From Callorhinchus milii (Eukaryota), in assembly GCF_018977255.1 (NCBI RefSeq), contig NW_024704742.1:42596001-42660000 (forward strand): a stretch of 64,000 nucleotides of DNA, in the 5' to 3' direction. A program made the position numbers and the translations under genes. The notes under the pieces were generated by a model, which was given only the letters and a program-made list of their open reading frames with translations, was not told where the DNA came from and made no database searches. How positions within the stretch are numbered: the first letter of the stretch is position 1; each line of letters begins with the position of its first letter. Shown piece after piece: positions 14,460 through 63,588 of the stretch.

Positions 14460-14820
14460 AAATAAATAATAATCCTTGCACTTGATATAGTGCCTTATCA
14501 CCTCTTCGAGACATCTCAAAGCGCTTCACAGATTATACTGTCGAGTGAATTGACTGTATACTTAGTGGGTGAAACGTGGCAGCCAATTGCGCACAGCATT
14601 GTCCCACAAACAGAATTGGATTGAGTGACCAATTTATTATTATTATTCCCCGGAAAAGCGATCCCCCAAATGACTAACAACCAGGTTCCTAATTAATGCT
14701 AGGTAAACAGAGTCTTATGGAGTAAGGAAACTTGCTCAATGTATTGCCCTGCTTGGAATCAAACCCAGGTGCTCTTGCTTGCAAGGCGAGTGCTCTAACC
14801 ACTAAGCTACAGGACTCCAC
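14460..14820 (-). mobile_element. Family A SINE, long subfamily, full length, nested inside an older split SINE
   Basis: Head ...agctacaggactccac; (TTA)n tail at 14460. Halves of an older SINE lie at 14180-14260 and 14938-15123. Confidence 0.85.
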
Positions 14821-16480: not shown

Positions 16481-17255
16481 GTGTATTGGCAATAATACTC
16501 TTAAGCATAGTGATGGGTCATCATTCGCTGTAAAATTTGGAGTACATGTCGATATTGAGGCAATGAATATCAAGCTCCATCCCTGCTCTTGACATGACCT
16601 CAAGGAGGTCATCTCAGGAGTTCAATTCTATCCACAGTACTAAAACACAGTGAGTACAAATTAAACTGGGCTCCACTTCCACATGGTTCATTGGATGTTC
16701 TCAAGCTATCTGTATCATTAGCTCTTTTCCAACAGTACAGCAACAGCTAGATGTGGAGTTCAGAACAATACCAGAACCACAGAATTTGCATTACATTTTA
16801 ATGGTGCTGATGCAATGAAATAAAAATCAGTATTCCCTTCTCCAAAATGATCTTCTTCACTCCCAGCTCTGTAAACTTGAGAGTGCTATAGTGAGAGACT
16901 ACAACTGCACTCTAAAAATCTTCCGCAAATAAGAAAGTCAGAAGATACACACTTTTGGCCAAAATTAATTCTGTGATTTACAACAACAAGAAGATTACAT
17001 TTGTATAGCGCGTTTTTAAGATGGACTCCTGGCCATACTAATGGTTCATATATCTTTTGGTCTGTTTGGTGTAACGCCACTATATGAGGTGAAGTTCAGG
17101 AGTCTCAAGCCAATTCCTATGACAAATCTGACACTAAACAGCAATCTCACTCAGCGAAGTTATGGAAAACCTGGTGAAGAATATGGAACCAATACATCAC
17201 ATTGGTTTAGATTAACATTGCAACATCATGACTTGACCTCTGAGGTTAATATCTA

Positions 17256-18270
17256 CTTTAATATCTACGTGCTCCCCCTTGGTGACATCATCCACAGACA
17301 TGGGGTCAACTTCCATATGTATGCAGATGACACCCAACTCCATCTTTCTGCCTCCACCCTCAACTCCAGGACCACTGCTGTCCTGACAGACTGCCTGTCG
17401 GACATCAAGTCCTGGATGAGGGCAAATTTCCTACAGTTGAATGTGAACAAGACTGAGGCCCTCCTGATTGGCTCGCGCCAGCGCCTCAGCACCTCAGGCT
17501 CTGGCAACATCAACCTCTATGGTTGCACACTACAACTCACCAAGTCAGTCAGGAACCTGGGTGTCTTGTTCGACCCTCAACTGTCTTTCCTTCCCCACAT
17601 TCAAGCCATGACCCACTCTGCCTTCCCTCACCTCCGTAACATCGCCCAACTCCGCCATACCTCACCTCTCAGCCCCCTGAAACTCTTGTTCATGCCTTCA
17701 TCACCTCCAGGCTCGACTATGTAAATGCCCTGCTTGTCGGCCTTCCCAACTCCTCCCTCCACAGGCTGCAGATAATCCAGAACTCTGCAGCCCGTGTCCT
17801 CTCCTGCACCCATCTCCCCCATTCTCGCCCGACTCCATTGGCTCCCTATCCTTCAGAGGATCCAGTTCAAGATCCTGGTCCGCACCTACAAAGCCCTCCA
17901 TGACCTCGCCCCATCCTACCTCTGCAACCTCCTAACCCCCGACCAACCCACCCGTTTCCTCCGTTCAGCCGGCTCCGGCCTGCTCCATGTCCCCCGCCCC
18001 ACCATTGGTGGGAGAGCCTTCAGCCGCTCTGCCCCCAACCTCTGGAATTCCTTCCCCAATCACTCCTCCTCGCCCCCTTCTTAGCCTCCTTCAAGTCCCG
18101 TCTCAAAACCCTCCTCTTCGACCATGCCATCGGCCAACCCCTTCCCCTCCCCTTCCTTCTCCCTCCCTACCCCAGCTCGGGTCTGAAATACTGTACACTG
18201 TCCAGCGCCTTGGGATGTCCTCCCGACGTGAAAGATTCTAAACAAATGTAATCTTGTTGTTGTTGTTGTT
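17256..18270 (+). mobile_element. L2 LINE, 5'-truncated ORF2 (RT C-terminus) and 3' end
   Basis: [26 protein letters not shown] and LHWLPILQRIQFKIL motifs with frameshifts; 3' hairpin and (TTG)n tail. Confidence 0.95.
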
Positions 18271-26579: not shown

Positions 26580-26950
26580 ATAATAATAATATAACAATCC
26601 TTGTATTTGATACAGCGGCTTAGCACATCTTTGAGACGTCTTAAAGCGCTTCACAGAATATACTGTAAAGTGAATTGACTGTATACTTTGTGGGTGAAAC
26701 GCGGCAGCCAAGTGCGCACAGCAGTGTCCCACAAACAGTCGTGGATTGAGTCACTGATTTATTATTATTTTATTGAGAGAATTATTACCCCCAGAAAGGC
26801 CAATCGACTAGCAACCGGGTTTCTACTTACTGCTAGGTAAACGGAAGCATGTGGAGTAAGGAAATTTACGTTTCACTCTGCTGGTTAATCAAACCCAGGT
26901 CTCTCGCTTGCGAAGTGAGTGCTCTAACCGCTGAGCTACAGCACTCCACA
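26580..26950 (-). mobile_element. Family A SINE, long subfamily, full length
   Basis: Head GGAGTGCTGTAGCTCAGCGGTTAGAGCACTCACTTCGCAAGCGAG (Ala-type anticodon arm), CORE-like and Deu-like segments, L2-type tail. Confidence 0.9.
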
Positions 26951-28668: not shown

Positions 28669-29834
28669 AACAACAACACAAGCAACAGCAAATTACACTT
28701 GTATAGCGCCCTTCACGTGGGAAAGACGTCCCAGGGCACTGGACAATCGGGTTTTGTACCTGAGTTGGGGTCAGAAGGGAAGGAGGGCAGCGGTGAAAGG
28801 TGCAGGAAGGCGGCCGAAGGCACGGTCGAAGAGGAAGGTCTTCAGACAGGACTTGAAGGAGACAAGAAAGAGGGTGAGGTGGAGGGATTGTAGGATAGAG
28901 TTCGAGAGTGTGGGGGCAGAGATGCTGAATGCCCAACTGCCAATGGTGGGCGGGAAGTCCGGGGGACCTGAAACAGGGCGGTGTCCGTCGAGCGGAGGGA
29001 GTGGACAGGCTGATATGGGGTTAGGAAGTCGGAGAGGTACTGGGGAACAAGACCATGGAGGGCCTTGAAGGTAAGAACAGGGCTTTTGTACTCGATTCTC
29101 TGAGGGATGGGGAGACAGTGAAGCCGGGCAAGAACAGGGGTGATTGGTTTGCGGAGCCTGGTGCGGGAGAGAACACGAGCTGCAGAGTTTCGAATAATCT
29201 GCAGCTTGTAGAGGGAAGAGTTAGGAAGCTCAAAGAGCAGGCAGTTAGCGTAGTCAAGTCAGGACATAATAAAAGCGTGGATCAGGGTCTCGGCGGCCTC
29301 CTGTGAGAGGCAGTTGCAAAGGCAGGCAATGTTGTGGAGGTGTAGAAAGGCAGAACAGGTCACGGCACGAATGTGGGGTTTGAAGGATGATAGCTCAGGG
29401 TCGAAAAGGAAACCAAGGTTTTGGATTGGCTCGGTGAGGTGAAGAGTGCAACCATAAATGGTGATAGTGTCAGTGGCTGAGGTGAGAAGGCGCTGCTGGG
29501 AGCCAAGCAGGAGGACCTCTGTCTTGCCAACATTGAGCTGGAGGAAGTTGGCTCTCGTCCCGGACTTGATGTCAGACAGACAATTAGCCAGGACATCAAA
29601 GATCCTGGAATTGAGGGTGGAGGTGGCGACATAGAGTTGGGTGTCATACACATACATGGGGAAATTGACCCCATGCCTGCGGATGACATCGCTGAGCTGG
29701 AGCTTGTATAGATTGATGAAGAGGGGACCGAGGACAGAGTCCTGATGGACCCCACACGTGACAGTGTTGGGGCTAGAGGAGAAGTCATTGGTGGCCACGA
29801 AGTGCTGACGGTGGGAAAGGTAGGATTGGAACCC
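28669..29834 (-). mobile_element. L2 LINE, 5'-truncated
   Basis: ORF 29259-29798: GVHQDSVLGPLF, MYVYDTQLY (decayed YADD), LNVGKTE; 3' hairpin and (TTG)n tail at 28669. Confidence 0.95.
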
Positions 29835-32528
29835 GAAATGCGATCACAATTTAACAGTTACTACCAATATTTCTGATCTGCAAAGACTGTTCAAGGAGAG
29901 TGAACTAATGCTGGTCCTAGTGACCATGCAAGTTATTTGATTATAATATTTCTATGCTATCTATTAAGAATAAATTAGCTAGATTAGGTAGATACCTCTA
30001 AAGGGAATGGAGCGAACACCAGAGTGGGATTAGATTAAGGTGGATTGCTTAGAGAAAAACATTAGCACAGACATAATGTGCAAAAAGGACTGTTTCTGTG
30101 TTGTAACATTTTGTGAGTCTACTAATTGATGATAATATAGATAGGGTTTTATACTGTAGCCTTTTCCCTCGCCTAGGCTCTATGGTCCATTCTACTTTAT
30201 GTGCACAGCTCAACATGCCCTGTCCTGAACCTTTGCACCTGATGTCCTGTTTTATTCAAAATGATACAGTATTTTTAATATTTGTGTATTTATTTTTTTT
30301 AAAAAGCATACCCACACAAATGCCATCAATTTATTCAAAATTAAGACTATAGTTTAATCATCTATCTAAGTCCTGTATTTGATGGAATTCAAAAATGGAA
30401 AACTACTGTATTTGAGCTGCAATTTAACTCACAAATAACACATGAATTTTGAGTACTGCATTGTGTCATTGAGTGGGCATCAAAAGCAAAAGGAATTCCA
30501 ATAATGTGACAATATATCACCAGTGATATTTATCACATTGAATTTTTTTTTATCTTTCCATGTGGTGTTACAATGATAATGATTCTTTGCATTTGATACA
30601 GTGTCTTTCATGTCTTTTCTCCATATCCAATGCAGCCACAAATTCCAACCCACATTATAGCAAGGTGCATTCAATTAACAAATACACACAACCGATTGAC
30701 GCATAGAGCGGATGGACGGATTCTGTGATGGAAGAAAAACTGGTACTGCAATGACAATTCCTAATTTTCTGTACCTGCACAAATTGGGAAGTGACTTCAG
30801 CGCGGAGGGGGAGGGGGGGGAAGAGCTGGAAGTCGGCCTTTTATTAATGTGGGAATCTAAAACAACTGTCTTCCAAGTCCCTGCCAAATCATTGGGTCCC
30901 TGCATGCGCAGCAATCAGGAAGTGACATGAATAACAACCTAATGGTTTGGAAGTCATCCATTTTAAAATGAAAAGCCAGTGTGGGAAGCAGCACATGCCT
31001 AAAAACAGGCTCCACAGTGCAACATGTTATAAGTGAATTTGCGCTTTAACCCTGAAGCATGTTATAATAGAGCTGCATTCCACTTCCAAAATACGCATCA
31101 ATGTCTCTTAAACATCCTAATCAGTCCTAGATGTAGAATCGATTGGGACAGCGGAGGATAGACAATGTCCATTACACTCTTTAATGGACATTAGTGCATT
31201 AGGCATCTGCTGAAGCCCAGAACAGAATCACAGAGCAATTCTTTAAATGACAATCTCAGAATTAAGTTTGTGCTTTGATATCAAAGGCAAGCTTCAGCAT
31301 CAAAAGGGACAAAATGCTTCTTGTAATTTAATTATTCAGCACTCATTTCATTATCATACTTCATAACAATGAGAAGGTAGTTTAAATAAGTTCAAAAATG
31401 GAGAAAGGCTAAAAATGTTACCGGATTATTTGAAGGCTGTTAAACTTTGTTTCAGTTGAATAATCTGTTCTCAAATGTATAATAAAAGGCTGTTCTTGAC
31501 TGATTTAATTTACAAGGAAATAAAGGTCATTGAACAAACGTTCTTCTAAGAATGCTTGGAACTTGATCAAATTCTCTGCAGACCTTAGTGCCTTCCAACG
31601 CATCCCACATCACTTAATTCGGCCCTAAACTCTACAAGTTGCAATGAATTCAGTCTTGCCAAGTAGCTAACTACTGAGCCTCACCAGCACACCCACTCAC
31701 CCCTTCTAACCTGATTAGAAAGCTCATCCAATATAAGTACCTGCAGAATTACTGATCAAACACACAGAATGAAAATTCTAATCATCAAAACAATTTTATG
31801 CTTTAAAATTCATCCGAGAATATGTGCTGCTTCTCTGGCTTGCTGGTTCTTTCCCATGTGTTCTGAAGGTCATAATATAGCTCCGGTTTCCCTGGGAGCA
31901 TTGGTGCTGAGTGGAGATGAGAGTTCTTTACACTGCCTTTGATTTTGCTAATGTATACTTTTCATAAGATTTGCTATTGAGTCATCCCAAACATGATGTG
32001 ACTTTCAAATTATGTTTTATTACAATTTAAACAGGAATATTCATTTTAAATGCAAACATGTCATGAATGTCACTAATTCCGACATTAGTGTGAAATGGTT
32101 TTCTTATGATGCTGTCTTTTCTCAGTTAAGATGTTTTGCATAACATGTTAAATGTATTTCATGCACATGAAGTTGTCAAATACACCATATTAATTAATCT
32201 CATTCATAAACTGTGGTAGTAAAGCAGAGAGGAATGGGTATTTCACGATGTTAACAAATCCCTGCCTCTATATATGTTGATATTACATGACAAAACATTT
32301 TTTGAAAGCTATCATGAAGAATGATAAAATTCTACATCAATGACTTAGATGTGAAAATAGAGCTTAATGTATCTAAATTCATGGATGATACAAAGCGAGG
32401 TGGGAAAATAAGCTGTGAGGAGGACATCCTTGAATGTACTAAATTGCAGCTATGGAATTGTAGTAGTAGATTCTATAATGTACCCTTATTGTCCTCCATT
32501 CTTCTCTCATCCATTTGAACTATACTCA

Positions 32529-44333: not shown

Positions 44334-44649
44334 TAATAATAATAATAATCCTTGCATTTGATATAGCGTTTTTCACATCGGGAGGATGTCCCAAAGCGCT
44401 TCACAGAACACACTGTAATGTGAATTGACTGTATATTTGCGGGTGAACGCGGCAGCCAATTGCGCACAGCAATGTCCCACAAACAGTCGTAGATTGAAAA
44501 TTACCAATTTTATTATTGTTTTTGTTTTGGAGGGATTATTATTAGGTGTGTGGAGTAAGGAAACTTGCCCAAGGTTTCGCCCTGCCTGGAATTGAACTCA
44601 GGTCTCTCGCTTGCAAAGCGAGTGCTCTAACCACTGAGCTACAGGACTC
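44334..44649 (-). mobile_element. Family A tRNA-Ala SINE, short subfamily, full length and young
   Basis: GAGTCCTGTAGCTCAGTGGTTAGAGCACTCGCTTTGCAAGCGAG: A-box and anticodon arm CTCGC-TTTGCAA-GCGAG (TGC, Ala). B-box GAGTTCAATTCC; probable TSD aggtaa on both sides. Confidence 0.92.
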
Positions 44650-46665: not shown

Positions 46666-47804
46666 TCAGTGGTTCACCTACGACAATACAGTCACTGCAC
46701 TTGACAAATGCAAGGATTATTGTTACTGTATAAATATTATTCATATTAAACATCGATTAAGATCCATAGAAACACAGAGTTTTTCACAGACTTTTCAGCC
46801 TATTATGTCTGTCACTGCTACCTGTATTATCACATTTTATTACTAATTCCAATTTTTATCAAACTTCCCATATCCATTAACACTTTTACTGCTCAGGTGC
46901 TTTTCCACTTTCCTTTTAAATTATTCCATTGATCCAGCCTCAGTAGCCACTTGTGGTGATAAATTCCAAACCATACCAGCTCCCTGAGTACATAACTTCC
47001 TTCCAGCTTTGTAAAGCTTTGCGTTACCTAAGTCATAGAGTCATTTGTTTAATATCCTGTATTAGTACCTTCGGAAAGAGTTATGTGTTGTGGTTCGAAT
47101 GTCCTTATGCTGACCCTTAATCTACAGCTTAACATTTCCAGTTGCTGCCTGACTTTGGTTTAAGTGATCTCTGTCAGACTAAATGTGGCCTCAGCAGTGA
47201 TGTACACAAGGTTAGAATAACATCTTTGAATTTATAGTGAAATGCCCTTGAGAAGCAAGCAAGTATTTGATTTGGCTTGTTGACAGCAACTTCATATGAA
47301 CTGGAAATCTTCAGCAAATGATCAATAATCACCCACAGATCAATTTCATTGTGTGTCCTTGCTAATTCAGGATTGCATAAGCACTTGCTGAATTAACAGT
47401 AGTTTTACACTGTGGGTGCTCACACACATACACATCAGAATTTAGTTTGCACAAGAACAGTCATTACTAGCATTTGTAAAAGTGTACTGACCAGTGTGCT
47501 GACCAGTGCTATAGGTCACAGTCTCATCACTTGTGTACAAATAAAACAGATCAATACAAATTAAAGAGTTTAGATTTTTTCAAATATCAAAATAAATAAT
47601 AACAATCCTTGCATTTGACATAGCGCCTTATTATGTTTTCGGTTCATCTCAATGCGCTTCACAGAATATACTGTAAAGTGTATACTTTATACTTTTGGGT
47701 GAAATGCAGCATTTCATTCAAAGCCTTTCACTGAATTCCACTAAAATCCACAAACATTATCAAGAGCCTTGCAGTGATGAGCATTATTTCTTCTGGAGTA
47801 TTCT

Positions 47805-49338
47805 GGAGTTACTGAGGGAAGTAAGGATGGAAATAGCAGAGGCTCTGGCCACAATCTTTCAATCCTTCTTGGACACTAGAGTGGTGCTGGAGGACTGGAC
47901 TGTTGCAAATGTCATCCCCCTGTACAAAAAGGGGCAGAAGGATAAACCCAGGAACTACAGGCCAGTCAGCCTAACGTCAGTAGTTGGGAAATTCCAAGAG
48001 ACTAAAATCCGGGACAAAATAAAGTTTCACTTGGAAAAATATGGGTTAATAAAGGACAACCAACATGGATTTGTTAAAGGCAAATCATGTCTAACAAACC
48101 TGATAGAGTTTTTTTATGAAATAACAGAAAGGGTGGATGGAGATAGTGCAGTTGATGTAGTTTATATGGATTTTCAAAAGGTGTTTGATAAGTGACACAT
48201 AAGAGAATTGTAAGCAAAATAGAAGCTCACAGTATTATAGGAACAGTGGCAGCATGGATATAGAACTGGCTGAGAGACAGAAAGCAGAGAGTTGTGGTAA
48301 ATAGTTGTTTTTCTGACTGGCGGGAAGTGTGCAGTGGTGTCCCCCAGGGGTCGGTTTTGGGACCACTGCTCTTTCTGATCTATATAAATGAGCTGGACTT
48401 GGGTATAGGGAGTAAAATTATAATAATAATAATCCTTGTATTTGATATAGCGCTTTTCACGTCTTCTCGACGTCTCAAAGCGCTTCACAGAATAGACAGT
48501 AAAGTGAATTGACCATATATTTGTGGGCGAAATTTCCAAGTTTGCAGATGATACTAAGATAGGAAAAGTAGTAAACAGTGAGGAGGATAGTGGCAGACTG
48601 CAAGAGGACATAGACAGACCGGTAAAATGGGGGTTCATATAATTAAATCTTTGAAGGTGGCAGGACAGGTAGATAAAGCTCTTAAGAAAGCTTACGGGAT
48701 ATTAGGCTTTGTAAATAGATGCATAGAATACAAAAGACAGGAAGTTATGATGAACCTTTATAAAACACTGGTTAGGCCTCAGCTAGAATACTGTGTTCAT
48801 TTCTGGGCACCACACTTTAGGAAGGATGTCAAGGCATTGGAGAGGGTGGAAAGAAGATTTACCAGGATGGTACCAGGAATGAGGGACTTCAGTTATGAGG
48901 AAAGGCTAGAGAAGCTGAGATTATTCTCCTTGGAGCAGAGAAGGTTAAGAAGAAATTTAATAGAAGTTTTCAAAATTATGAGGGGATTTGATAGGGTGAA
49001 CAAGGAGAAATTATTTCCATTGGCGGGTGGGTCGGTAACCCGAGGACACTGATTTAAAATAGTTGTTAAAAGAAATAGAGGGGAGGTGAGAAGACATTTT
49101 TTCACACAGAGAGTTATTCGGATCTGGAATGCATTGCCTGAAAGGGTGGTGGAAGCTGATTCAATAACAACTTTTAAGAGAGAGGTAGATAATTATTTGG
49201 GGAGGACAATTTTTAGGGCTATGGGGAGAGTGCAGGAGTGTAGGATTGATTTGGATAGCTCCTTTAAAAGAGCCTGCACAGATACGATGAGCCAAATGGC
49301 CTCCTTCTGTGCTGTGTAATTCTGTGATTCTATGATTC
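47805..49338 (+). mobile_element. CR1 LINE, 5'-truncated ORF2 (RT) through the 3' end; decayed
   Basis: [64 protein letters not shown] and RPQLEYC motifs; ATTCTRTG terminal repeats; contains stops, an internal deletion and a SINE insertion. Confidence 0.97.
48420..48529 (-). mobile_element. 5'-truncated family A SINE tail inserted into the CR1 RT
   Basis: Interrupts GSK-ISKFADD; aaatt duplicated at 48415-48419 and 48530-48534. Confidence 0.9.
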
Positions 49339-52960: not shown

Positions 52961-54880
52961 AGTGATAATGCTTAAGGTGTGACCTGACCATATCACTAGA
53001 CAGCTTAGGTACGGCTTCTGGACATCTGAGCTCAACTGATTTGGCGATATAGACCAACCTGTTTGCCTTATTTATTGCTGCCTCAGATTGTTTTGACAAG
53101 ATGAGTGATGAATCAGTATCGTTAGATCTTTTTGTGCTTCTCCTACAACAACTTCTATATAATTCATGTTTTTCTTATTCTCACTTCCTGTATGCAGTTC
53201 ATCTGTATTGGACTTTATTTACCAGCCCATTTGCATCCTCTATCAAAGCTCTCTTTATTATTATTAATAATAATCCTTGCATTTGATATAGTGCTTTTCA
53301 CATCAACAGAAATGTGAATATTTCACAAAATATTGCACAGAATTTACAATGAAGTATAGTGACTGTATTTTGTAGGTGAACGCAAATAATTTACACAGAG
53401 CAGTTTCTCACAGTCATGAAATGAATGACCAATTTTTAAGACCTATTCTGTCTCCTTTGATTGCACAGTAACTCCCAACATAGTGTCATCGGCAACTGTA
53501 ACTACCTTACGCTGGGTCCAGGTTATTAACATATACAAATTACAGGAGAGGTCCCAGTTCACACCCCTGAGCCACCCTGCTTAATACTTCCCTCCATTTT
53601 GACTCAGCTCCCCTAACAATGACTTTCTGCTTCCTCCCCTTCAGCTAGATGAGGGACAAGAGACGAGTGACAACCTTCTCCAACTGAACATCAACAAGAC
53701 CAAGGCCCTCCTGATTGGCTCAGGCCAGCGCCTCCGCACCTCGGGCGCTGACAGCTTCAGCCTCCACGGTTGCACACTCAACCTCACTAAGCCAGTCAGG
53801 AACCTCTGTGTCTTGTTTGACCCTGAACTGTCCTTTCTCCCCCACATCCCCGCAGTGACCGGCACAGCCTACCAACCCCTCCGCAACATTGCCAGACTCC
53901 GCCACTGCCTCACCCCTCAGGCTGCCGAAACCCTCACCCATGCACTCGTCACCTCAAGGCTTGACTATGAGAACTCCCTCCTCATCGGCCTTCCCAACTC
54001 TTCCCTTCACAAGCTGCAGATCATCCAAAACTCTGCAGTTCATGTACTCTCACACACCAGGTTCCGCGACCCCAACACTCCCACCCTCGCCCGACTCCAC
54101 TGGCTCCCCATCCCACAGAGGATCTAATTCAGGATCCTCATCCGCACTTTCAAGACCATCCATGGCCTCGCCCCCTCCTACCTCTCTGACCTGCTGACTC
54201 TCTACAAGCCTGCCCGCTCCCTCCGTTCAGCGGGCTCCGGCCTGTTCCATGTGTCCCGTCCGACCCGCCCTACCATCGGTGGTCAGGCTTTCAGCTTCTC
54301 TGTCACCACATTCTGTAGCTCCATCCCACATTCCCTTTGCGTCACTTCCTCCCTTGTCTCCTTCAAGGCCGGTCTCAAGACCCTCCTCTTCGATCGTGCC
54401 TTCGGTCCCATCTCTCTGCCTTCCCGCACTCCTCCCCCACCCCAGCGCCTTGGGACGTTCTCCTGATGTGAAAAGTGTTCTATAAATGTCATTTTGTTGT
54501 TGTGGTAGACATGTGATACTTTGTCAACTATCATTTGTCTAGATCCATTATGTCATTTGGCTTCCCTCAGATAATTTGGGCTGTCACCTTAAAAACGTCA
54601 ACAATCTCCTCTTTCTGAATCCCTATGGGTTGTCACTTATTTGGTTATTTTTGTACAAGCAAGCTTTTTTTTCTGATGATTTTTCCAGTTACTGAGATCA
54701 GGCTAATGAGTATGGTTTTGTCATATTTCTTGAACATAGCAGCAACACTTTCTTGTTTCCAGTATATTGGAACTTCCCAAGTGGCGATTGACTCCCTCAT
54801 AATGTCTGTCAGTGCTACACAAATCTTCTGTCTTGTCTCCCTAAGAACTCTGGGGTACAGTTCATCTGTCCCAGGGATCT
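52960..54880 (-). mobile_element. Old CR1 fragment split by a SINE tail (~53265-53440) and an L2 (53652-54503)
   Basis: Minus-strand remnants ADDT (53481-53496), DKVSH (~54505-54525) and PGTDELYPRVLRET (ORF 54645-54965). Confidence 0.65.
53652..54503 (+). mobile_element. L2 LINE, 5'-truncated
   Basis: LNINKT, FDPELSFLPHI, SRLDYENSLLIGLP and LHWLPIPQRI; 3' hairpin and tail. Confidence 0.95.
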
Positions 54881-61160: not shown

Positions 61161-61797
61161 ATCATGTCATCACCGTGAACTGGATCAAACTTTTGTCCAA
61201 GAGGAAACAGAATAGCGTACCAATTCATATTCCACCACCCTATCTATTCAACAGCCATTATTAAACAAGACCAGACAACAAAGCACATAGTAGATACAGT
61301 AGATGACAACAAGTAGATGACAACTTCTATATTCTTCTTAATTACTGGGAAGTGTACCATGGGCTGTGATCTCTTTGCATAATCATGCCAGAGCATGAAG
61401 CACAGCAACTCATTTCAATGTATTAATCAAAGGATAAATGATGCTTTATGTGTTTTTACATTGCACTTAATGTGGAAGTTCAATGTAATGGCCACTTAAA
61501 ATGGAGTGCAACTGTTCAAGGTGGCTTCAGTTCCACCAATTAGTCAAATAACGAGAATGTATTATAAGTGCTTTGGATCTGCCACTTAAAATGAAGCATA
61601 ACTGTTCTATATATACCTCCATCTAATAATCAATCAACATATAGTGCTCTAAACGCTAATTTGGAAGCACTTACATACTAGGACCAAAACCCTTAGTGCG
61701 GAAACAAACACAAATTGTTTTCCCACCAAGGACCATTATCAGTGAGAAGCATTACAAATCTTCCTGACACTCGTCCATTGACATTACTGTGTATATA

Positions 61798-62460
61798 TGT
61801 TGCAGAAAAGTCCTAATTTTCAGTAATATTTTGAAACCATGAAATCATTGATATTAGGAGTCAGGGGTTTCGTGAAAAAATGATCCCAGCAGTGGACAGG
61901 GGTAGAGAGGATCCCAGGAACATCCTTGGTGTTATCATTAATGATGATTTAGACACTGACCAGTGCAAAATAGCAGTGAAGACCTGAGGGGTCACTATTC
62001 TAGATACCAATTTGACCTCTGCCCACATGATTGTTAACAGAGACCTGCTTCAACCAGGAGAAGTCAATGTCACTTCATGAAGCTGTCATTGTACAGTCTG
62101 TTTGTGGTGGACAAAGCTTTATGAAGTCTAACTACGGTCAGAAGAAATATCAGACCAACCATTGTAAATGCTTTAAAGCAAAGCTAAAATTTAGCTCCCG
62201 GTGTCATAGAAGCCTCACTTGTGTTAACAAATGAACATTTGACTTATCAGTGAATGAAATGTCACATGAAGTTTATGGTGAATAAAATATTAATTTTCAT
62301 TATGTGTTATTTATTTGTTGATCATGGTAACAGCAACAGTGTCAAGGCAAGGTTATCAATATGATGACATGATTACTTTTTCCCAAAATCACTGACTCCT
62401 GATTTCAGTGATTTCATGGTTTTACAATTTAACTGAATGTTTCACAATTTTACTGTAACA
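61798..62460 (+). mobile_element. Internally deleted Ginger-like (KRBA2/SCAND3-related integrase) DNA transposon
   Basis: ~90-bp TIRs starting TGTTGCAG and ending CTGTAACA; flanks tata / taca; internal transposase C-terminal remnant. Confidence 0.75.
61880..62234 (+). pseudogene. C-terminal fragment of a Ginger-type transposase/integrase (frameshifted)
   Basis: IPAVDRGREDPRNILGVI...IAVK / LRGHYSRYQFDLCP / SLHEAVIVQSVCGGQSFMK...TNHCKCFKAKLKFSSRCHRSLTCVNK* resembles the Cys-rich C-terminus of 'KRAB-A domain protein 2-like' transposases. Confidence 0.75.
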
Positions 62461-63588
62461 TACATATCTAAAGAAAGGCTTTACTTTTTTTCAAATAGTG
62501 TAACAGCTGAGCTGAAATTCCAGTCATTGTTATGCAGGGTGATACAGACAACATATCGGGTACCAGAAATATGCTACACGTAAAGACAAATGGAATTTCA
62601 TCCCCAATGTATAATTCTGAATTTTGGTCAAGTTTTCCAATACATATGCGCTATATGAATGCAAGCTGTTGTTATTAACATATCAACATAAAAGACTGCT
62701 GGTTCAAAGGTAACTTAATCATAGAAGCATAGAAGTTTACGGCACAGAAGGAGGCCATTCGGCCCATTGAGTCTGTGCCGGCTCTTTAAGAAAATAAATC
62801 CAAGAACATATAAATGGAAACTCACACAAAAACATGAGGGCAGATATCATGAAAATCTTCTTTACTTACAGAATAGTTTTGGAACCAAAAAATGCAATCG
62901 AGGCAAAAACACAGAGGTCAGTCAAAAGATAGCTGGACTCCATAACAGGGAGTGAATGCCCCGGAGAGATGAACATCAGTGAAATACTTCTTATTGCCCC
63001 AATTTACCATAAATGAAATTGAAACCATGAATAACCTGACACATCTAAAGGGAGTCAACTGTGCAATGTTTCTGTGTCCTCTGGGGCAGCAGGCAATGCT
63101 TCAGCTTATTGACCGTACATAATCCAGGAGATAGATCCACTGAACAGTGACTGATACCTCAATGAAGTTACCTCTCAACATGCATTGACATTACATGCAA
63201 CAAACAACAGAATTGCCAGTTAAGATGAAGGCCCTGTTCATATTTGCGGTGCAGTAACTTTCTTTCTGAAGGCCATTCCTGAAGAGAAGATTAGACATTA
63301 CAAATGGCATCAGAGTCAGTTATATTGACACAGGTAGATAATTAAGTTCTTTACTGTAGAATTGAATCCTTAATTCTAAGCCTTATAGAAATATCCACAG
63401 GTCAGCACTTTCTAAATCTCATAAGAGTTGTTGAAATAACATACTCATAGCCTGGGTACCAGTATAAAGATTATTCCAGGACCATTATTTTACTTATTTC
63501 CCTGTGAACCAGGCTGGATCGTCAGAGCTACTCACTCATCAAAGCTGATAGCTCACTAAACTACATGCAACTCAACTGCAATGATTAC

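Follow-up and report, generated by a model that had tools for sequence, protein, structure and literature searches.

We identified a 663 bp transposon remnant, bounded by both of its inverted ends, at positions 61798–62460 of the window (the whole 64,000 nt stretch of DNA that was analysed). It is very probably a defunct copy, non-autonomous and MITE-like, of a DNA transposon of the cut-and-paste group Ginger2, and it belongs to a multicopy family that occurs in several related species.

The left terminal inverted repeat (TIR; 61798–61885, plus strand) aligned with the reverse complement of the right TIR (62371–62460, minus strand) at 68 of 90 columns. The alignment score of 98 compared with a mean of 21.3 (sd 3.9) and a maximum of 41 in 1000 shuffles, bearing out the long TIRs proposed in a preliminary description of the sequence. 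A repeat finder returned an ungapped core of 67 nt (81%), and the full arm length of about 88–90 bp fits the Ginger2/Tdd range of 50–180 bp. The element opens with TGTTG at 61798 and closes with TAACA at 62460 (TGT...ACA); both ends fit the Ginger2 rule TGTNR, the right end reading TGTTA inward. The right arm, which begins inward with TGTTACAGTAAA, resembles invertebrate Ginger2 ends. The element is flanked by TATA (61794–61797) and TACA (62461–62464), 4 bp copies with one mismatch. The TGT...ACA ends and the imperfect 4 bp target site duplication reported earlier are both present as sequence, but the flanks are equally compatible with an exact 2 bp duplication of TA. An A precedes the left copy, and the empty site as reconstructed, A-TATA-T, matches the Ginger2 target RTATAY (PMC2836005). 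Self-search of the 64,000 nt window found no second copy of the element.

Between the arms lie the final 115 or so codons of a transposase, split over three frames on the plus strand. Piece 1 (61883–61984) encodes the start of a C-terminal beta-barrel and is joined directly to the left arm; piece 2 (61984–62028) follows a first frameshift; piece 3 (62022–62234) follows a second, and carries a cysteine-rich tail that ends at a natural stop codon, TGA, at 62232–62234. An AATAAA at 62281–62286 (plus strand), 3′ of the stop, is probably the polyadenylation signal of the parent element. All of the peptide motifs on which the preliminary description had based a frameshifted transposase C-terminus were found, distributed over the three frames. 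A full HMMER scan of 1.84 billion representative sequences with the 66-residue piece 3 returned 71 proteins at E≤0.001 (best 1.6e-12); a word-index protein search with the same 66 aa piece gave no match, nor did a Pfam search with the three remnant pieces. When 175 homologous proteins were aligned to the window by tblastn, 173 matched the element and none matched elsewhere. For 124 of them homology began at 61883, by the inner boundary of the left arm, and this common start locates the deletion junction. The same search found no catalytic core in the window, so that the assignment to Ginger2 is based on three features: the C-terminal fragment, the two ends and the target.

To characterize the parent enzyme, we used the C-terminus of a long relative, which identified 99 proteins, many of them annotated as KRBA2-like or SCAND3-like. 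Species names were attached to 29, all of which were crustaceans, molluscs or a sea spider, and the other 70 carried no species name. Further names obtained from protein clusters were Mya arenaria, Penaeus chinensis and an aphid, again without a vertebrate. All 33 long relatives examined contained a D-D-36-E core and 31 contained an H2C2 finger. A YPYY-like motif was present in none of the 33, some of which are N-terminally incomplete, and GP[YF] occurred twice, both times in a variable proline-rich linker. No OTU or Ulp1 domain was found in the relatives scanned, and a search of viral contigs found no relative. Pfam matches of the relatives to rve and Integrase_H2C2 scored below the curated cut-offs, and their profile matched foamy-virus integrase with an E value of 1.8e-15. 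The C-terminal domain is conserved throughout the family. The fragment retained in the window was modelled (pLDDT 82.5) as a small beta-barrel with a cysteine-rich tail that matched generic SH3/Tudor barrels (best Z 4.3) and retroviral integrase C-terminal domains (Z 3.6–3.7), similarities that are not diagnostic. The full-length protein model was poor (pLDDT 50.6), yet matched integrases. In four of the proteins (P0055, P0162, P0164 and P0172), whelk or sea spider gene models combine parts of a Ginger2 transposase with EGF repeats, Integrator subunit 11 and other unrelated domains; these are probably gene-prediction fusions with inserted transposons.

With X placed at the frame breaks, and 88 of 90 alignment rows retained, the remnant was 73.5% identical to P0086, 70.8% to P0087 and, over 113 columns, 69.0% to P0090. 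The P0087 cluster contains Mya arenaria proteins, and two Penaeus monodon proteins (P0004 and P0150) are likewise near relatives of the remnant. By eye, the core of P0090 corresponds at 110 of 111 residues to that of Ginger2-1_PMon as given in Data S3 of PMC10045372, which connects the remnant with a Ginger2 family that already has a name.

In Bao et al. (2010, PMC2836005), Ginger2 is defined by TGTNR ends, TIRs of 50–180 bp, a 4 bp duplication at an RTATAY target, and a transposase with H2C2 and DDE but without YPYY or GPY/F. Relatives with D-D-36-E and H2C2, the match to the Ginger2-1_PMon core, the TGTNR ends and the RTATAY site together identify the element as a non-autonomous Ginger2, rather than Ginger1 or GingerRoot. 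The preliminary description, which had proposed a Ginger derivative akin to KRBA2/SCAND3-type transposases, was supported and could be narrowed to Ginger2: one of the closest relatives of the peptide carries the core of a Repbase Ginger2.

Ginger1 resembles Ginger2 as an integrase-related DDE transposon with TIRs, TGTNR ends and a 4 bp duplication, but is described as inserting at CCGG/CCGT, with YPYY and GPY/F motifs and usually OTU or Ulp1 domains (PMC2836005). We excluded it because the target here is AT-rich, because both motifs are missing and because the relatives gave no OTU/Ulp1 match. GingerRoot/IS3EU, our first lead, is likewise integrase-related with a DDE core and TIRs, but was dropped because the account in PMC6839031 gives a 6 bp duplication and mostly TA...TA ends, whereas the present element ends in TGT...ACA and its relatives share the Repbase Ginger2 core. 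The 6 bp flanks, TATATA and TACATA, also differ by one base.

Among the closest named systems, Ginger2-1_PMon is connected with the remnant through P0090, although P0086 and P0087 are slightly closer to the remnant and the window copy differs in being non-autonomous, coreless and in a vertebrate. In architecture, the element recalls the Ginger2_NA MITEs of Bombyx mori and Rhodnius prolixus (531 and 651 bp), described as internally deleted with a preference for TATA (PMC3845634), and Ginger2-1N1_NV, likewise a non-autonomous Ginger2 derivative from an invertebrate (PMC2836005). The 16 nt terminus given for the insect Ginger2_NA elements (PMC3845634) shares 13 of its 16 positions with the right end of the window element and 9 with the left. 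Compared with these invertebrate MITEs, the window element retains a recognizable transposase C-terminus and is more decayed. KRBA2 and SCAND3 are described as mammalian genes derived from Ginger2 transposases, grouping with insect Ginger2, but they are intact single-copy host genes with KRAB or SCAN domains (PMC3575427). In NCBI annotation, many of the remnant's relatives are entitled 'KRAB-A domain-containing protein 2-like' or 'SCAN domain-containing protein 3-like'.

We also examined the ends of related elements. From 80 metagenome loci encoding relatives we derived 17 termini at 13 loci, which with the two ends in the window gave 19. The start TGTNR was present in 18 of the 19, and RTATA preceded 14; as background, TATA precedes 7 of the 1396 TGT sites in the window. 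Three of the relatives' termini matched the right end of the window element at 19 of 21 bases, and DNA likeness of the element to the 80 loci was restricted to short stretches, the best being 81% over 47 nt. The dinucleotide adjoining the element was TA in all 19 termini, and the outer pair was TA in 14; all six departures from TATA fell in the outer pair. The five elements with both ends defined had TA on each side, and identical 4-mers in only two cases. At locus L017 the first 30 terminal bases are the same at both ends, yet the flanks are CGTA and TATA.

These patterns could be explained if the subgroup duplicated TA alone, in the middle of a TATATA-like target, instead of the published 4 bp. 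We consider this less likely than the 4 bp duplication, although the invariant inner TA and the scarcity of identical 4-mers keep it in view. Ginger2 is reported with 4 bp duplications (PMC2836005), the insect MITEs in Table 1 of PMC3845634 have variable inner bases (WRTH, KHTM), and integrase-type enzymes are described as staggering their cuts by 4–6 bp (PMC10045372). Five of the six departures are transitions, as expected from decay, and the termini are few and non-independent. The published data favour the 4 bp duplication. In contig alignments from four sequencing runs, no empty site was found among the 15 joints listed (of 105), and five contigs from one organism (organism C, below) run on past the right end with a TATAC-like consensus.

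The inverted repeats of the relatives also contain 22 bp palindromes of the form CAG...CTG, which usually run from position 23 onward and often recur at intervals of 29 bp. They were present in 12 of 17 relative ends, compared with 1.3% of shuffles, and palindrome-related termini were recorded at L005:44-193, L010:143-292, L013, L014, L017, L022, L029, L030, L034 and L042. These palindromes are probably transposase-binding sites. Neither arm of the window element (61798–61885 and 62371–62460) contains a 22 bp palindrome at the same threshold. In all four sequencing runs, however, loose contig ends show that other copies have such a palindrome immediately beyond 61815 or 62444, and the window copy thus seems to be one unit short in each arm. 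It should be noted that L017:3431-5212 is an independent internally deleted Ginger2 of 1782 bp with 153 bp arms; its deletion has brought part of the catalytic core up against the C-terminal tail, and it sits among copies of another inverted-repeat element.

Contigs of 4 of 21 listed sequencing runs aligned to positions 61450–62700 at 80% likeness, a cut-off that limits the divergence values that could be seen. The runs were X12 (organism A; 374 contigs aligned), X5 (organism B; 189), X6 (organism C; 239) and X10 (unlabelled; 88). Relative to the single-copy left flank, summed contig depth over the element was 26–101x in organism A, 8–34x in organism B, 19–71x in organism C and 9–27x in the unlabelled run; this ratio is not a copy number, and we take it to mean only that there are many copies with the same boundaries. 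In all four runs depth stepped up sharply at 61786–61827 and down at 62458–62499, the intervals that contain the two termini. The element is therefore one of a multicopy non-autonomous family, as had been proposed, and other copies share these TIRs. Depth rose again at 62626–62700 in all four runs, indicating that another repeat starts about 165 bases beyond the right end of the element.

Majority differences from the window copy were identical across the four runs. One organism C contig covers 61823–62330, across the deletion junction, and a differing organism A contig extends 74 letters on each side of 61908; the deleted structure thus exists elsewhere than at the window locus. Other contigs align only from 61883 or 61885 inward (record 2 of X10 and record 10 of X12), indicating that the family includes forms with other upstream sequence.

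The age of the family was assessed from 29 of 32 listed pieces (of 1057 in total), leaving out the locus's own contig and two flank pieces. Among the pieces listed, divergence from the window copy was 12.7% in organism A, 13.5% in B, 14.2% in C and 13.8% in the unlabelled run. Orthologous flanks, represented by two short pieces, differed between species by 9.4–9.5%. Because the copies are more diverged than the orthologous flank, the simplest reading is that amplification preceded the split of these species, an age relative to the split that is estimated from sequence divergence. The family is neither specific to the window's fish nor recent, contrary to the earlier description of a family 'in this fish': it occurs in all four runs, with copies that exceed the flank divergence, and was thus inherited among these species. 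Left-flank contigs of the other species align again just before the element, with the two flanks on contigs of different depth, and among the records listed none bridges or skips the window insertion in the other species.

Given that every named relative is an invertebrate and that the enzyme family is similar to retroviral integrases, we considered whether the element could be an invertebrate contaminant of the assembly, part of an LTR retrotransposon, or a KRBA2-like domesticated gene with chance inverted repeats. We judge all of these very improbable. An organism A contig passes from the single-copy flank into the element (61476–61938) with zero differences, which rules out contamination, and the left flank has counterparts of about 90% identity in the other three runs. 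Two breaks interrupt the reading frame, and related loci have inverted ends that match those of the element.

Elsewhere in the window, a CR1-type frame at 48591–49049 supports the vertebrate host proposed at the outset, though it does not single out a cartilaginous fish. It matched only birds and turtles among named proteins, at ≤52% identity, and unnamed proteins at ≤70% (among the 120 matches listed). The frame lies in a decayed LINE with a CR1-type reverse transcriptase region at 47677–49052. Further decayed LINE fragments occupy 17020–17724, 28842–29843 and 53603–54127, and several of the LINE frames in the window are putatively L2-like. The 121 non-repeat frames of at least 62 aa gave a single Pfam match, to a reverse transcriptase, and thus revealed no exon of a host gene. 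Three tRNA-like Rfam matches on the minus strand (44577–44648, 14744–14816 and 26873–26945) lie within a high-copy repeat and are most likely SINE heads. The single-copy left flank of the element contains a 42 nt imperfect direct repeat (74%) at 61476–61517 and 61566–61607.

We propose with high confidence that the element arose by deletion of an autonomous Ginger2, that the short form spread to TA-rich sites with the help of transposase provided in trans, and that the copies then decayed. The parent would have encoded one integrase-type transposase, with an H2C2 finger, a DDE core, a low-complexity linker, an SH3-like barrel and a cysteine-rich tail. An internal deletion would have fused the left inverted repeat to the last 115 or so codons, removing the catalytic core. 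With its ends intact, the element could have been excised and reinserted at AT-rich RTATAY sites by the transposase of full-length partners; this mobilization in trans is suggested by the known behaviour of the family and by the insect MITEs. In an ancestor of the species studied, the deleted form may then have multiplied to several sites before it decayed, and the window copy is presumably neutral.

As the origin of the parent, we lean towards horizontal transfer at an ancient date, from a mollusc, crustacean or similar marine invertebrate lineage into an ancestor of these species, followed by vertical inheritance. The restriction of all 29 species-named matches to crustaceans, molluscs or a sea spider is consistent with this origin, as is the content of the clusters, in which no vertebrate joined Mya arenaria, Penaeus chinensis and the aphid. 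Even in its decayed state the remnant retains the 73.5% and 70.8% identity to P0086 and P0087 given above; after a rough correction for 5–7% neutral decay, the parent would have been about 79–86% identical to these proteins. It would thus have been as close to them as clam and shrimp proteins are to each other (80%), whereas two families of a single snail are further apart (60.5%). Against transfer, 70 of the 99 matches lack a species name, a tree built from 121 columns places the remnant in no well-supported set, and the DNA likeness to the 80 loci is short. Ginger elements are described as transferring often per copy (PMC12400950), and transfer of Ginger2 between insects has been reported (PMC3845634).

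Alternatively, the family could have descended vertically from early deuterostomes, having been lost or decayed in most lines and overlooked because few slow-evolving genomes have been examined. We regard this as a possible, though less probable, origin. The C-terminal domain is conserved family-wide, as vertical descent would allow. The split between vertebrates and protostomes is deep, and by our estimate the parent is closer to protostome proteins than such a depth would lead one to expect. Published accounts place Ginger2 in the lancelet (PMC2836005), describe Ginger1 relics revealed by sensitive methods in alligator, turtle, coelacanth and frog (PMC9004415), and mention single- or low-copy Ginger2-related sequences in birds (PMC11835228). 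The lancelet core in Data S3 of PMC10045372, however, is by eye visibly further from the subgroup than the shrimp core. Taken together, the decay-corrected identity of 79–86%, set against 80% between clam and shrimp, speaks for an old transfer out of a marine invertebrate rather than for unbroken inheritance, and on these sequence comparisons horizontal entry is plausible as an ancient event.

Llorens et al. (2012, PMC3575427) reported no GINGER2 transposon in any vertebrate, and on that basis proposed horizontal transfer from insects for KRBA2/SCAND3. None of the 24 Ginger2 names at the places inspected in PMC10045372 Data S3 (30 of 39) reads as vertebrate, with several host codes expanded by us; the paper used 30 entries. 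FishTEDB is described as holding 19 'Ginger' consensus sequences from 28 fishes, Callorhinchus milii included (PMC6404401), and repeat masking is reported to assign 6053 zebrafish copies and 236 medaka copies to 'Ginger' (PMC4746887). As presented in these two sources, the fish counts are not divided into Ginger1 and Ginger2. The PMC9004415 supplement makes no mention of Ginger. We found no description of a vertebrate Ginger2 family in the literature searched, which lay outside most subscription journals and Repbase Reports. Only tentatively do we suggest that the element represents an undescribed, amplified, KRBA2/SCAND3-like Ginger2 family in vertebrates, derived by ancient transfer from a marine invertebrate, that would overturn the 2012 claim of absence.

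The element itself is an ordinary dead derivative with no indication of a host function, and unspecified 'Ginger' repeats have already been counted in fishes, which limits the gain. The occurrence in vertebrates of a transposon group known mainly from invertebrates is modestly important: a multicopy Ginger2 with intact ends in several related vertebrates shows that transposition took place in at least one vertebrate line, and because the insertions can be dated, transfer and inheritance can be tested against each other. If the tentative reading of an undescribed family acquired by transfer is true, Ginger2 would have been mobile within vertebrate genomes, and the subgroup may also duplicate TA instead of 4 bp. 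KRBA2 and SCAND3 would then not need to stem from a one-off transfer from insects to mammals.
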